From IMG/VR virus record IMGVR_UViG_3300011113_000736, positions 6,610 through 70,609 of that record: 64,000 bases of DNA; one strand, given 5' to 3'. The number at the start of each line of letters is the position of its first letter. Within the stretch, counting starts at the first letter, position 1. Both the position numbers and the translations under genes were made by a program. This stretch comes from a virus. The notes beneath the pieces were generated by a model. The model did not search any database, was not told the DNA's origin, and was given only the letters and a program-made list of their open reading frames with translations. Of this stretch, positions 35,839 to 51,545 are shown piece after piece.

Positions 35839-36996
35839 ATGAACTTTAAAGAGTGGCTAATCAACGAAGCTTTAGAATATCAACCAGAAAACTGGACGCA
35901 ATTCATCCGTAAAACTAAAAATAAATTATCTCTAATCGAGAGAGAATTATCTTCCACTCAATTGAATAATTTTTTAAATTATTTAAATAATGTCGATAAA
36001 GATAATTTCTCATCTCGCATGATCCAATTATTCGATGCGGCATTTTACCTAATAGAAAAATATGCTAAAATACTAGAAAATGTAGAACAATGGCACAACA
36101 AACCAATCGAAATTGTTGATGATTTGGCAAAAGAAACTTGTAGCAAAATTGATTTCAATAGAACTTTCAAAGCAGCCAAAGACTTAACAAAAACTACTTC
36201 GTTAAAAGATTATTATAATGAATATCTTGACATGTTCATTGAACAAGAAGAAATTTTGAAAAATACAAGCGATGAAGAATCATACCAAATTATAAAAAAT
36301 GTAATAAACAAAGTCGAAAGGATATTCAAACTGGCAGATAAATATATAGAAATAATTGAAAATTTTGAAAACAAGCTTAAATTTAGATGCAAAATTTTGC
36401 TCGGCGCACAAGGACGAATGAGCGATTTGTTTTATACAAGAGATGTCTTTCCACCACATGAAGATTTTGAAATCATGTATCACGCCACTACAAATGCTCC
36501 CGCAATTATGCGTGAAGGATTCAAAACTAGAGAACAACTTAGAAAACAGGGTTTGGGTGGTGGTTTGGGAGGTGGACCAGAGAATGTAGTATCTTTTACA
36601 GCCAATCCTAAAATAGCAGAAAAAATAGCCCAATCTATGAAATATACAATCAAAATAGCAAAAGGCGAAATAACTGATCAAGATGTTATAAAAAAATATA
36701 ATAGATTCGGAATATTCAAACCAAAAGATTTGGAAGAGAAACCATACAAAGAAGGAACCAAAAAAAAAGCATTATGGTTGTTTAGACTCGCACAAGGTAG
36801 AATGGACGAAAAAGGACTTGCTTATGATCCTTGGATCGCATTTCCAGACATGGAACTATTAGCAAAACTTGATCCAAACAATATTGGAATTATACAAGCA
36901 AAAATTGATATGTCAAAAATAGTGCAATATCTTCCGGCAGAAGAAGAATATAGAGTTAAACTAGATGGCATATCTGAAATAAAACGATTCATCTAA
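35839..36996 (+). CDS. CTS-bearing protein with C-terminal ADP-ribosyltransferase-like domain
   Basis: MNFKEWLINE; MYHAT...EGF...VSFT...EEEY. Confidence 0.65.
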   Translation: MNFKEWLINEALEYQPENWTQFIRKTKNKLSLIERELSSTQLNNFLNYLNNVDKDNFSSRMIQLFDAAFYLIEKYAKILENVEQWHNKPIEIVDDLAKETCSKIDFNRTFKAAKDLTKTTSLKDYYNEYLDMFIEQEEILKNTSDEESYQIIKNVINKVERIFKLADKYIEIIENFENKLKFRCKILLGAQGRMSDLFYTRDVFPPHEDFEIMYHATTNAPAIMREGFKTREQLRKQGLGGGLGGGPENVVSFTANPKIAEKIAQSMKYTIKIAKGEITDQDVIKKYNRFGIFKPKDLEEKPYKEGTKKKALWLFRLAQGRMDEKGLAYDPWIAFPDMELLAKLDPNNIGIIQAKIDMSKIVQYLPAEEEYRVKLDGISEIKRFI

Positions 36997-37843
36997 AATC
37001 ACCTCTTCTTGTCTTAGGAGGCACATAATCATTTGGTGTAATACCCTTGCTTTGCAAGTAGAAAAGAACCTTCTCATGTACAACCGCTAAGTGATTGTAC
37101 ACTGACTGCCTGCTTAATGGCTTGCTCGTTTGTTTATTAATATATTTTGCACGATAATCAATATACCACATTGGAACATCTAATCTTCTGTTTACAAAAC
37201 TACGCAAAATCATTGCCTCTTGATCTGTCAAACCACAACCCACAACTATATTGTCTATTTCCAAATCAATATTTTCTGTATTAGCTGAATAATCTTTATT
37301 AATTCCACAATTTTCTAAATTAAAATCTTTGTTTTCAAAATCGCTAACACATTTTACATTAAAACCACCTTTAAGCAGATTTTTGAGCTTTTCTTTGTGC
37401 AACTTACCTCTTAATCGCATGAATATAGCTCTATGAGCATATGTGGTGAATGATGCTTTTATTTTGTATGTCCTGTATTGCCATACAGCTGAACGAATAG
37501 CCATAAAACCGTCTGTAACAAAATCATCATACTTTTCGTAATTGATACGCATTCTTTTCATTATATTATAGACCATAGCACTGTATTGCTTTATTAGTAT
37601 TTCTTCAACTTCGGAAGCATAAAACATAATTTTGCAATCTTCGATAAACTTATCTCTACATTTTTTTGTTAGTTTGTTTGCGTATTGATTGGCATCTTTC
37701 AGAATGCTGTATATGAAACGCATATAATGTATTTTTTTGATTTTGAAATGCTTGCACCATTTGTAACAAATGGCATTGCATTTTTTCAACCTTTCAAAGT
37801 CAACAATACTTTTAATATCTTTACGCATAGGATAAACAATCAT
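36989..37843 (-). CDS. Phage RNA polymerase sigma-70-like factor
   Basis: Region 2-like DDFVTDGFMAIRSAVWQY...ASFTTYAHRAI; region 4-like LTDQEAMIL...LSRQSV. Confidence 0.75.
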   Translation of the reverse strand: MIVYPMRKDIKSIVDFERLKKCNAICYKWCKHFKIKKIHYMRFIYSILKDANQYANKLTKKCRDKFIEDCKIMFYASEVEEILIKQYSAMVYNIMKRMRINYEKYDDFVTDGFMAIRSAVWQYRTYKIKASFTTYAHRAIFMRLRGKLHKEKLKNLLKGGFNVKCVSDFENKDFNLENCGINKDYSANTENIDLEIDNIVVGCGLTDQEAMILRSFVNRRLDVPMWYIDYRAKYINKQTSKPLSRQSVYNHLAVVHEKVLFYLQSKGITPNDYVPPKTRRGDFR

Positions 37844-37945
37844 GCCATTTTCCTCCACCATAACTCCTATGGCGTAATGATAACCATTCATAAAATTTTT
37901 TCAAGCATTTTATTATGCAAAATTAATTACGACACAGATCAGAAG

Positions 37946-38188
37946 TTATAAACCAGCTTTATCAAGTTTCTTATAATAATCTTTGTCTTCACGCATGTGA
38001 GCCACAGCAATTTTCAAAGCTTCCAAATCCGTGCTAATTACTTTTGTATCCTTTCCCATCTTTCCAGAATGCTCTTTCTCTACCTTTAATCCTTTTTTCA
38101 GTTCTGCAATAGGTAATCCATCTATGTCAATTTTGCCATCATCAGCAAGTTTTTTAATATCAGCCCACTCAGTAAATGTAATATTCAT
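37946..38188 (-). CDS. Small conserved phage protein (DUF5661-like), CTS-like start
   Basis: ELKKGLKVEKEH...KIAVAHMREDKDYYKKL; TATAAATA upstream. Confidence 0.7.
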   Translation of the reverse strand: MNITFTEWADIKKLADDGKIDIDGLPIAELKKGLKVEKEHSGKMGKDTKVISTDLEALKIAVAHMREDKDYYKKLDKAGL

Positions 38189-38225
38189 AATACTTATTTA
38201 TAAAATAGAAAAGAGAAATATTATC

Positions 38226-38642
38226 ATGTTTATTAATTTACTCTCATATGGCGGAATAGGATTAGGTCTTGCCCTTGCAGTTCTAACATATAGAATCATA
38301 GCAATTGAACAAAAAAAACAAAATCCAAATATAAACATAATATTTCTAACTTATGGCTTTATGATCTTGGCAATCACAATGGCAGGGTTTGGCTTTATTT
38401 CCGAAATAAAGAAATCAGATAATTTAAAAGAAGAAAACGAAAAGATTGTTTTTCAAAATGAATTATTACAATCAAAAATAGAAAAACTTAAAGAAAATAA
38501 TGACAAGTTCGAAAAAATAAAACATAGCCTTGATTTGCTTTTAGATGTCAAAGGAAGTTTGATAAAAAAGTCTGACACTATATCAAACATCAAATCAGAA
38601 TTGATCATTATACAAGAAACAATGAAAAAAGAATTGAATTAA
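38226..38642 (+). CDS. Two-TM membrane protein with coiled coil
   Basis: Two hydrophobic helices then a heptad-rich tail. Confidence 0.55.
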   Translation: MFINLLSYGGIGLGLALAVLTYRIIAIEQKKQNPNINIIFLTYGFMILAITMAGFGFISEIKKSDNLKEENEKIVFQNELLQSKIEKLKENNDKFEKIKHSLDLLLDVKGSLIKKSDTISNIKSELIIIQETMKKELN

Positions 38643-38728
38643 TCACCAATCACTAAAAAAAGAACCAATAGAAACTATTGATATCACTACAAAAAATGCC
38701 AACAACAATATCGTTATCGTTTCCATAA

Positions 38729-50000: not shown

Positions 50001-50324
50001 ATGACCACCTTCAAACAATTCCTTGAAAATAACAATCAAGAATTTATCGTAACCACTCACATCAACCCAGAATACAATACACCCCAATTCATTTTCAAAA
50101 CACCAGAAAGAAAAGAAATAGGAGAACTACAACTCAAAAGAAGCTTCCTAAGAGGCAAAGATGACTTCGTAGTCGCTAACCTCATCGTCTGGACAGAATT
50201 CCAACGACAAGGTTATGCCACCAAATTCTACAAATATGCCGCCAATTGGATCAAAAAGAACCACCCAAAATCAAACTTATTTATATATTCGCCACCCGCC
50301 GAAACATTACCCATCTCGACATAA
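50001..50324 (+). CDS. CTS-bearing GNAT acetyltransferase, probably C-terminally truncated
   Basis: MTTFKQFLE; LIVWTEFQRQGYATKFY acetyl-CoA motif A. Confidence 0.7.
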   Translation: MTTFKQFLENNNQEFIVTTHINPEYNTPQFIFKTPERKEIGELQLKRSFLRGKDDFVVANLIVWTEFQRQGYATKFYKYAANWIKKNHPKSNLFIYSPPAETLPIST

Positions 50325-50585
50325 ATTAAAAATACATAAACCTCTTCACACAATTCACCCCAATTCTTCATAAAACATTCCCGCAATTATGAAGACAAAC
50401 ACCAATCCATACTATATGGATATTTTATTACTATTACTCAAATCACCACCATACCCACAAGTATATCACGAACTTGTAACAGAACTTTTCTTAAGCAGCT
50501 TACTTTTTGGCATCCTCGCCTTATTCACAACCACAGCTTGCGAAATTATCTGGTTCAAAATAAACAGTTTGTTTATAAATAATTC

Positions 50586-51152
50586 ATGACCACTTTCAAA
50601 CAATTCCTAGAAAATCAAGATCAAATACCACAAAGGAAAATACCTGTCGGTGGTTTCGGCGGCTGGAAAATTCACCTCAGAACCGGACCCGTTGATAGCA
50701 ATAGAGACACAGCCTATAACTATGTCCTACAAATAATTAAAGATAATGGAAACAAATGGAAATCAAAAAAACTATCCGGCGGTGAAGCCGACCAAAAAGA
50801 TATTACCATTTACTGCGGACCTAAAGAAGAAGCTAACAAAGCAGCCAGAGCAATTAAAAATAACTTATACCTCTACAATATGCTCTTCCCACCAAACACA
50901 GATATAGCACAAGATGATATTCAAATATTACCAGATGTCCGTAATGTCTACGGAAGATTCAGCGCCTCTATACTAAACACCCAACCTTACACCTTTCACC
51001 AATATGGATGCAAAGGTTGGTCCATGCTTGCTTCCGATATGAGCAAAAAAACAATAGCTCGCTATAGCAAAGAAGAATTCGACTCAAAATCCGCCTGCCA
51101 AAAAGCTTACCTCGTATTATCAAAACTATTCGGCAAAGATTTTACAGGTTAA
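50586..51152 (+). CDS. CTS-bearing protein resembling the OspF/LanKC-type phospho-Ser/Thr lyase domain
   Basis: MTTFKQFLE; GWKIHL...KDITIY. Confidence 0.55.
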   Translation: MTTFKQFLENQDQIPQRKIPVGGFGGWKIHLRTGPVDSNRDTAYNYVLQIIKDNGNKWKSKKLSGGEADQKDITIYCGPKEEANKAARAIKNNLYLYNMLFPPNTDIAQDDIQILPDVRNVYGRFSASILNTQPYTFHQYGCKGWSMLASDMSKKTIARYSKEEFDSKSACQKAYLVLSKLFGKDFTG

Positions 51153-51178
51153 ATTAAATAAATATGCATAAATAATGC

Positions 51179-51259
51179 ATGACCAACTTCAAACAATTCT
51201 CAGAAAATGAAGAAAAGAATGATGCTGGTGAAACAGCCCAAAACTCATATATAAGTTAA
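51179..51259 (+). pseudogene. CTS-only 26-aa remnant
   Basis: TAAATA then MTNFKQFSENEEK...*. Confidence 0.55.
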
Positions 51260-51272
51260 GAATAGGAAAATT

Positions 51273-51545
51273 ATGAAAACCTTTAACGAATATCTGAAAG
51301 AAAACCAAAATATTTTCCCAAACACTAGAGGAAAATCTGGACCAACTATGGTAAAAGTTACTCAAGATATGTCTGGATATCTTACTGGAGAACTTCAGGC
51401 TGTATTAGAGCAATGTATTTCTTTTCTTAAAAATGCTGAACAATATGCTTCAGAAGGTGATGAAGCATCTGCCAGAAGGTCTTTAGACGGTTTTTTTCAT
51501 CATCTTCCAGAACTTCAAAGATTATATAATTTTATACCAAAGTAA
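51273..51545 (+). CDS. CTS-bearing small protein
   Basis: MKTFNEYLKE, the closest match to T4 MKTYQEFIAE. Confidence 0.7.
   Translation: MKTFNEYLKENQNIFPNTRGKSGPTMVKVTQDMSGYLTGELQAVLEQCISFLKNAEQYASEGDEASARRSLDGFFHHLPELQRLYNFIPK

Follow-up and report, generated by a model that had tools for sequence, protein, structure and literature searches.

The stretch of DNA considered here, referred to as the window, comprises 64,000 nucleotides of the IMG/VR virus record IMGVR_UViG_3300011113_000736 and corresponds to bases 6610 to 70609 of a single record of 70,609 bases. All coordinates are window positions, and a gene may be named by the position of its start codon and its strand (for example 38860+). 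Between 35839 and 51545 lies an array of genes whose products, mostly unrelated to one another, begin with the same short peptide, in which two aromatic residues three positions apart are followed by Leu or Ile and, in most cases, by a Glu. This shared peptide, hereafter the tag, is probably a capsid targeting sequence (CTS) of the T4 type, so that the proteins behind it, their cargo, would be packaged into the phage head, cleaved and delivered, and the array would be a hypervariable cargo locus.

The array opens with a gene of 385 amino acids (35839-36996, +) that starts MNFKEWLINE/A, the slash marking here and below the position after the Glu. The C-terminal half of its product resembles ADP-ribosyltransferases (ARTs) weakly: an Atlas search gave only the weak leads NarE and DarT, with scores below 0.9 and TM below 0.5. 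Inside the array there follow an untagged sigma-70-like gene (36989-37891, -; Pfam Sigma70_r2 2.3e-5, and NCBIfam sigma70-ECF 1.6e-6, below its cut-off), a DUF5661 protein of 80 residues (37946-38188, -) and a gene for tRNA-Asn (38728-38803, -). The DUF5661 protein, starting MNITFTEWADI, is a doubtful member of the family that has the aromatic pair and the upstream motif described below, with no Leu/Ile and no Glu after them. The next tagged gene (38860-40170, +; 436 residues; MNFKQWLLTE/A) encodes a protein whose central domain is modelled with an ART-superfamily fold like that of Tpt1/KptA, and it is followed on the other strand by a gene of 195 residues (40167-40754, -; MIGFKKYLLE/Q). The middle of the array is occupied by a trio of tagged paralogs at 40841-42544 (+; 567 residues; MRFKQWLLLSE/K), 42566-44431 (+; 621 residues) and 44435-46612 (+; 725 residues), which have in common an N-terminal domain of about 200 residues with an ART-like fold, followed by ankyrin repeats in the first and third (Pfam) and by repeats of about 30 residues in the second. 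The tandem repeats of the second paralog span 43358-44128, and the third contains a 213-nt duplication that is 97% identical (45496-45921). Beyond the trio lie a tagged gene of 153 residues (46632-47093, -; MQSFRLWLE/N), which matches positions 1323-1458 of the 2185-position profile phrog_938, one of 191 residues (47168-47743, +; MNFKEYIYNE/T) with homologs in the related loci L033 and L036, and one of 483 residues with a variant tag, MKSFYDMYQILKE/T (47775-49226, -). The array ends with tagged genes of 209 residues (49363-49992, +; MTTFRQFLE/T), 107 residues (50001-50324, +; MTTFKQFLE/N), 188 residues (50586-51152, +; MTTFKQFLE/N, with a hypervariable linker behind the tag) and 90 residues (51273-51545, +; MKTFNEYLKE/N). 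An open reading frame (ORF) of only 26 residues with the full tag and the upstream motif is found at 51179-51259 (+), and a second very short full-tag ORF, of 28 residues, lies at 13846-13932 (+), where it overlaps 13746+ in another frame. Both short ORFs are probably remnants of replaced cargo genes.

All 21 tagged starts listed by a first-pass annotation of this DNA are in place, with the sequences that it reported. Across the 70,609-base record, 13 ORF starts fit the strict pattern M-x(1,2)-F-[KRNYQ]-x-[WFY]-[ILS]-x(0,2)-E, while the same Met-anchored pattern was found on average 0.13 times, and at most twice, when the sequence was shuffled 100 times in blocks of 2 kb. Of 16 occurrences of the core motif in the six-frame translation (141,214 residues), 13 follow a start Met directly. 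With a looser pattern, 17 of the 84 predicted genes of at least 60 residues in the record are tagged, against 2 of 417 internal Met positions; the count reaches 21 if 13746+, the variant 49226-, the doubtful 38188- and the 26-residue ORF 51179+ are included, and the range is 15 to 21. The proteins behind the tag had been described as otherwise unrelated, which holds for most of them: in an all-against-all BLASTP comparison of the 19 proteins longer than 40 residues, made after removal of the first 15 residues, only the trio and one weak pair (E 0.009) departed from that description.

In addition to the array, tagged genes are dispersed along the window, two of them within the module of head genes described below. 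These two small genes, at 5023-5349 (+; MQTFADFINKRFGLNE/N; first Glu at residue 16) and at 5510-5863 (-; MLRWKQYIE/N), both have a Shine-Dalgarno site, and the latter lies between portal and protease in the position of T4 genes 67/68. The others encode an FMN-reductase-like flavoprotein (8573-9454, +; MESFNNYIE/S), a protein of 83 residues (13746-13997, +; MLSFKKFMQLSE/I, with cATAAATAcatt before the ATG), one of 164 residues (21065-21559, +; MQGFRKYIE/L) and a Nudix hydrolase (23346-23774, -) with the tag-like start MSSFKDFFNKK and no nearby Glu. The head module itself is of the T4 type and is encoded on the minus strand at 133-8436, where Pfam recognises gp23, an S77 gp21-type protease and the gp20 portal. 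The gp23-type major capsid protein (133-1599; Pfam Gp23 4.7e-86) has the N-terminus MSLNAAYLNE/A, with further hydrophobic-x-E sites at residues 41, 48 and 55. It is followed by a scaffold-like protein in the position of T4 gp22 (1623-2504, -), which matches no family and contains 24 hydrophobic-x-E sites in 293 residues; this assignment is based on its position, on 51% identity to the neighbouring protein in the uncultured phage LR756511.1 and on the density of cleavage-type sites. The S77 prohead protease (2504-3142, -; Pfam 1.6e-26) bears out the earlier claim that a gp21-like protease is encoded here, and has DLNE/S near its own N-terminus. The gp20-type portal protein (5908-8436, -; Pfam Portal_T4 3.4e-72) contains an intein at residues 121-336 of 842 (Pfam Intein_splicing 4.3e-14).

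The phage LR756511.1 (595,163 bases) is the nearest public record, with a syntenic head module and 74% identity in the capsid protein, compared with only 30 to 34% between this capsid protein and those of cultured phages. None of the genes at 35.8-51.5 kb matches LR756511. Among GenBank phages, a nucleotide search for near relatives left window positions 1-20000 unmatched, and a protein search left 38860+ unmatched, no cultured member being found. CheckV puts related contigs, 20 to 84 kb long, at 5 to 19% completeness, so that their genomes would measure roughly 400 to 480 kb; given this size and the kinship with LR756511, the window is part of the genome of a huge phage.

The target of selection is the peptide, as follows from its codons and from the signals upstream of it. 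In 17 genes, one per family, the codons are mixed: Phe is TTC eight times and TTT eight times, and nine different codons are used at the Leu/Ile position. The tag occurs both behind Shine-Dalgarno sites (5023+, 5863-, 23774- and several genes of the related loci L033 and L035) and behind a motif abutting the ATG, and that motif also precedes untagged genes. The G+C content is 27-35% in the middle of the window (8000-52000) and 42-50% in both flanks, and two gene-start styles are present in this one phage genome, with GGAG-type starts in the flanks and most middle genes without them. A chimeric assembly behind the low-GC block was ruled out, as independent contigs bridge both array borders and related contigs have the same layout. 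The flank genes, head genes included, carry GGAG-type Shine-Dalgarno sites, whereas most array genes have no such site and instead show [AC]TAAATAA 3 to 5 nt before the ATG. The T4 late promoter has the consensus TATAAATA, which the array motif, [AC]TAAATA(A), resembles; the spacing of the motif suggests that transcripts would start at or next to the ATG, from a late-type promoter, and be leaderless. Of the tagged genes here, 8 of 17 have a late-promoter-like motif no more than 16 nt from the start, compared with 4 of the 67 untagged ones; the motif is similarly placed in 31 of 48 tagged and 56 of 957 untagged genes of LR756511, in which Shine-Dalgarno-like words precede 11 of the 48 tagged versus 466 of the 957 untagged genes. 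About 87 genes of LR756511 have [AC]TAAATA(A) 3 to 6 nt before the ATG, 31 of them tagged. Of 86 genes, 20 have the element NTAAATA in forward orientation in the 50 nt upstream, and 5 have it in reverse, the forward set including the terminase and a virion structural gene.

Homologs of the cargo proteins allow the behaviour of the tag to be followed beyond the window. In the family of 38860+, it starts 19 of 21 homologs, and the exceptions are an N-terminal fragment and a protein whose tag lies 18 residues from a start that was probably mis-called. F3, W6, L7 and E10 stay unchanged in this family as identity falls to 29%, while among residues 11-65 a single column, G38, is invariant. In the family of 50586+, 51 of 58 homologs are tagged, the linker between tag and domain varies in length and composition, and two members start at the conserved domain and are untagged. 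The N-terminal domain of the trio has the tag in 66 of 90 homologs; close homologs that do not show it are mostly truncated or have a wrong start, and the distant ones have a shorter start peptide ending [IL]-x-E-A directly before the conserved domain. These distant homologs (P0299-P0318, one of them from a 356-kb contig) start MK[IV]H[EQ]I[FL]E-ARRNP or similar, a peptide that resembles a reduced form of this type of propeptide. In the Nudix and FMN-reductase members, the Pfam domain begins right behind the tag, at residue 14 and residue 19, respectively. Judged from these comparisons, the tag outlasts its cargo and is modular relative to it. Two homologs of 38860+ have unusual architectures: P0002 (701 residues) joins a tagged part resembling an HExxH metallopeptidase to a Tpt1-like protein whose tag has lost its Met, and the C-terminus of P0016 has repeats resembling those of 42566+.

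Eight related IMG/VR loci were found via the 38860+ family. Among genes of at least 60 residues, the tag is present in 14 of 25 in L033, 11 of 12 in L034, all 17 in L035, 14 of 24 in L036, 1 of 27 in L037, which also has a head module, and 3 of 30 in L038, a contig of 50% G+C where the tag stands behind a different upstream motif. As in the window, small tagged genes accompany head genes in L037, beside the portal, and in LR756511, near the capsid gene. Taken together, the record and its relatives contain 77 tagged proteins from seven sources, which fall into 43 cargo clusters, only four of these being common to the window and other loci. A scan of LR756511 with the loose pattern gave matches at 48 of 1005 gene starts versus 46 of 3626 internal Met positions, and with the Glu required at 34 of 1005 versus 14 of 3626, where about 4 starts would be expected from background; they are dispersed throughout that genome. 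A 15-position profile of the tag, a kind of scan that the first-pass annotation had proposed, was dropped as too insensitive, since it gave only 7 places in LR756511 against the 34 to 48 from whole-record pattern scans. A slightly broader pattern applied to cultured phages with an S77 protease matched 4 of 245 starts in T4, two of them IPII and IPIII, 2 of 229 in Mel-JY01, 2 of 146 in RM378 and 2 of 293 in SP-15; since each of these four has only 2 to 4 matching starts, the expansion is specific to the uncultivated clade. Sequence nearly identical to the window is present in runs of 12 studies of freshwater, river, soil, sediment and other samples, and the array differs among these populations. 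A variant (X3) is devoid of 51153-51571, and so of 51179+ and 51273+, another (X6) joins 44408 to 46629 and is thus devoid of 44435+, and in X6 and X9 the stretch 38699-38846, with the tRNA-Asn, is replaced by 82 other letters.

The closest known counterpart of the tag is found on the internal proteins (IPs) of T4. In the T4 record, IPII and IPIII start MKTYQEFIAE, as had been stated, and IPI starts MKTFKEF, while the starts of gp24, gp21 and Alt read MAKINELLRE, MNEPQLLIE and MELITE. It has been reported that the first 10 residues of IPIII are enough for its incorporation, that residues 4 and 7 of the T4 CTS mainly carry targeting and residues 8 and 10 processing, and that the CTS may be a general route by which T4-like phages load various proteins (PMC9026906, cited in part). 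The CTS that T4's internal proteins carry is credited to Mullaney and Black 1996 (as given in the available parts of PMC9026906 and PMC3012670), and the internal proteins of T-even phages have been described as diverse defence proteins with only the tag in common (PMC3012670). The tag described here keeps the T4 determinants, that is, aromatic, x, x, aromatic, Leu or Ile, and then Glu. Over the 43 cargo clusters its consensus is M-[IKT]-[TN]-F-K-[QE]-[FWY]-L, with a small or polar residue after the Glu, which lies 2 to 5 residues past the second aromatic in 38 of the 43 cluster representatives. The presumed protease sites of the phage itself are of a similar kind: YLNE/A in the capsid protein, DLNE/S in the protease and the 24 hydrophobic-x-E sites of the scaffold-like protein. 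In structural models the tag forms a short amphipathic helix, at residues 3-7 in 38860+ and 3-10 in the N-domain of the trio. The interpretation of the peptide as a T4-type capsid-targeting tag, put forward in the first-pass annotation, is supported by the T4 match, by the head module and by the retention of the tag in homologs down to 29% identity.

The cargo is more difficult to classify. PHROGs gave nothing for 28 of 37 proteins, most tagged ones included, NCBIfam nothing useful for the tagged proteins, Pfam at loose thresholds only the sub-threshold GNAT matches of 50001+, and sequence searches of the PDB with four tagged proteins nothing below E 0.2. As for the activities assigned earlier to the cargo, the Nudix hydrolase and the flavoprotein are recognised by Pfam, the ART-like label applies at the level of the fold to 38860+ and to the N-domain of the trio, GNAT appears only below threshold, and the lyase-like label is confirmed for no gene. 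A Pfam search with 38860+ gave no match. Its AlphaFold model (pLDDT 79.5) has KptA/Tpt1, toxin ART subunits and DarT as top Foldseek matches, all weak (E 5e-3 or worse); H131, Y174 and E217 are invariant in the family, and one homolog is named TPT1/KptA by its source. The model thus weakly suggests that the central domain of 38860+ has an ADP-ribosyltransferase-superfamily fold similar to Tpt1/KptA, making it a putative enzyme. The N-domain of the trio was modelled with higher confidence (pLDDT 91.5), and its best match in the PDB is 9k3a chain B (E 1.7e-4, TM 0.44), from the pre-ejectosome of cyanophage A4, an ejection complex internal to the capsid; weak matches to PARP-type ART domains come next, and the Atlas leads are also ART-like. 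The family ART-PolyVal (PF18760) was considered for this domain and rejected, as Pfam gave no match at E up to 5 and, in protein P0319, PF18760 lies at residues 36-241 and the part homologous to the trio at 312-488, so that by sequence the domain is not ART-PolyVal.

Comparison with known systems helps to delimit what is particular to this phage. Like the tag, the N-terminal peptide of IPI, IPII and IPIII is short, with aromatics three apart, an aliphatic residue next and a Glu at a gp21-type cut; moreover, their mature parts are unrelated and have only the tag in common, the gene set varies among related phages, and the head module is the same. T4, however, has three such proteins, whereas 15 to 21 are found here in 70.6 kb, clustered, with cargo that is often enzyme-sized and not basic, and the array genes, unlike those of T4, are mostly without Shine-Dalgarno sites, many having a promoter-like motif against the ATG. 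The T4 protein Alt is an ART-fold enzyme of the head that is processed by gp21 and injected with the DNA (T4 record annotation; PMC9026906, in the part available), and 38860+ and the trio have, in their models, ART-like folds too. On the other hand, the start of Alt, MELITE, differs from the tag type of the internal proteins, and no sequence similarity between the tagged proteins and Alt was found. The ejection or inner-body proteins of SPN3US and phiKZ are similarly numerous, internal to the head, cut by a gp21-related protease and delivered to the host, but the accessible part of PMC5694885 describes propeptides mostly longer than 100 residues with no short consensus, one SPN3US protein having 20, compared with the 9 to 12 residues of the T4-type tag here. 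In phage P1, a large anti-restriction protein, or a reporter, reaches the capsid by way of an N-terminal signal, 30 residues long in DarB, although head lineage and signal are different and few proteins are loaded, in a stepwise manner (PMC9024508, cited in part). In the literature searched, supplements aside, we found no report of this expansion, and none of the papers listed on huge, jumbo and megaphages contains the term capsid targeting. The principle is already known from T-even phages; what is new is how large the set is, that the cargo is of enzyme type and that the tag is coupled to a leaderless, late-promoter-like motif.

The model that we favour would connect these observations as follows. 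The tagged proteins would be made during head assembly, many probably from a late-type promoter abutting the ATG that gives mRNAs with little or no leader. The two aromatics would dock each protein onto the scaffolding core of the prohead, where the S77 (gp21-type) protease would cut after the Glu and free the mature cargo inside the head. The cargo, which may range from ART-fold enzymes bearing ankyrin or other repeats and an enzyme like Tpt1/KptA to a small GNAT-like protein and others, would then leave the head with the DNA at infection. The region 35839-51545 would be a hypervariable locus in which unrelated cargo genes are gained and lost behind the common tag. A complex prediction of the S77 protease with residues 1-40 of the 38860+ family scored 0.00 in two runs, with no controls, and weighs neither way.

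Several observations count against this model. Docking, cleavage, presence in the virion, injection and a role in host takeover or counter-defence are all steps that we infer. The position of the Glu varies, 3 of the 43 representatives have none within 8 residues, and in the window none lies near the start of 23774- and 38188-, while the first in 5023+ is residue 16. The first aromatic is residue 4, as in T4, in 33 of the 43 representatives and residue 3 in the other 10. T4 internal proteins are basic, and IPI and IPII measure about 100 residues and IPIII about 190 in the T4 record, whereas the cargo is often large and not basic, with up to 725 residues here, a pI mostly between 5.5 and 9.4, and up to 1076 residues in LR756511. 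The head genes use Shine-Dalgarno sites and are without the abutting motif, which leaves co-expression of the tagged genes with head assembly unsupported. Finally, since the loose pattern also matches 1.3% of internal Met positions in LR756511, part of its 48 matches there are due to chance.

Other explanations of the tag have to be weighed against these data. It is unlikely that the tag docks a different partner, such as a phage chaperone or adaptor, a system for export or import into a compartment, or one for timed degradation, with the proteins acting in the producing cell. We know of no other machinery that recognises the tag peptide, although an amphipathic helix as short as those modelled could bind many partners, the cargo looks enzymatic, unlike DNA-binding internal proteins, an AAA ATPase is encoded at 11051-12259 (Pfam), and the virion location of the tagged proteins is something that we infer. 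Binding to such a partner would also have to account for a Glu followed by a small or polar residue, which fits the presumed sites in the capsid protein and the protease, for small tagged genes inside the head module, and for a match to T4 that falls on the residues reported for targeting and cleavage (PMC9026906, in excerpt). The small tagged genes of the head module also lend themselves to the idea that the proteins, packaged by means of the tag, serve the particle, where they might extend the scaffold core, condense DNA or regulate the pressure inside a very large head, with no effector role in the host. In T4, gp67, gp68 and the internal proteins are structural core parts (available part of PMC5694885), and phages of about 400 to 600 kb, a size derived from the CheckV completeness of the related contigs, have large heads. 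This idea appears improbable to us, because the array content differs between near-identical populations and related contigs, a variation that fits accessory genes under conflict and not structural parts, and several cargos have enzyme folds (ART, Nudix, FMN reductase).

It could also be argued that what is conserved is a nucleic-acid cassette, formed by the promoter and the first 30 bases of a leaderless mRNA and kept for expression or recombination, the peptide being a by-product. The PeSL regulatory cassettes in the hyperplastic regions of T4-type phages offer a parallel, in that a small conserved regulatory element precedes each accessory gene and whole genes are gained and lost by documented shuffling; they consist, however, of early sigma-70-type promoters and terminator stem-loops outside the coding sequence (PMC2839356, cited in part), while the conserved unit here includes the coding tag and its motif resembles a late promoter. 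The strong coupling of the tag to the ATG-abutting motif, the similarity of 49363+, 50001+, 50586+ and 51179+ at the DNA level and the coming and going of whole genes in the array speak for such a cassette. Nevertheless, third codon positions vary freely at conserved residues, the tag is found behind Shine-Dalgarno sites in genes that have no motif and the motif before genes that have no tag, and the 50% G+C contig L038 keeps the tag with a different upstream motif, all of which makes a by-product peptide very improbable.

The capsid-targeting reading can be extended to a whole uncultivated clade of phages of about 400 to 600 kb, in which the tag would mark the injected proteome, a few per cent of the genes would be head-loaded, and leaderless late cassettes would be exchanged gene by gene between populations. 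This extension, which draws on the at least 34 starts in LR756511, the 15 to 21 in the fragment and the 43 cargo families in seven loci, is put forward tentatively, our confidence in it staying a little short of even. If true, no other phage would be known with a pre-made effector arsenal anywhere near this size, and this one could be read directly from sequence. Should the tag function as it does in T4, a pattern of nine residues would predict, from metagenomic sequence alone, which proteins of huge phages enter the cell before gene expression, and would provide a list of candidate host-takeover or counter-defence enzymes, most of them of unknown family. It would likewise offer a case of arsenal evolution by gain and loss of cassettes behind a common tag, as well as natural tags and linkers for protein delivery by phage heads. 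With a capsid protein about 30% identical to those of cultured T4-like phages, the T4 targeting peptide would go back much further, and occur much more widely, than the T-even phages from which it was described.

Other features of the window lie outside the tagged genes. Near the packaging genes, which include a T4-type large terminase (18497-20284; Pfam), a thermolysin-like (M4) protein is encoded at 14180-15742 (-), a protein of this type also adjoining the terminase region in LR756511, and a ferritin/Dps-like protein at 18008-18454 (-). A cluster of glycan-type enzymes at 23912-34332 comprises a sulfotransferase, two GT2 glycosyltransferases, methyltransferases, a GH130-like protein and a TIM-barrel/epimerase fusion, and parts of it also adjoin the arrays in L033 and L036. 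At 53562-60242, successive minus-strand genes are followed by five to seven G+C-rich hairpins with an A/T run (AAAAACCCCACTTGGTG...CCAAGTGGGGTT), similar to terminators, and longer repeats of 68-122 nt in the same region take in gene starts reading MVAKDQ. Three tandem 48-nt repeats are present at 53236-53407, between an ORF of 254 residues (52517-53281) and a ParB-like gene (53622-54656), with a fourth copy at 52384; they may represent a partition or replication site.

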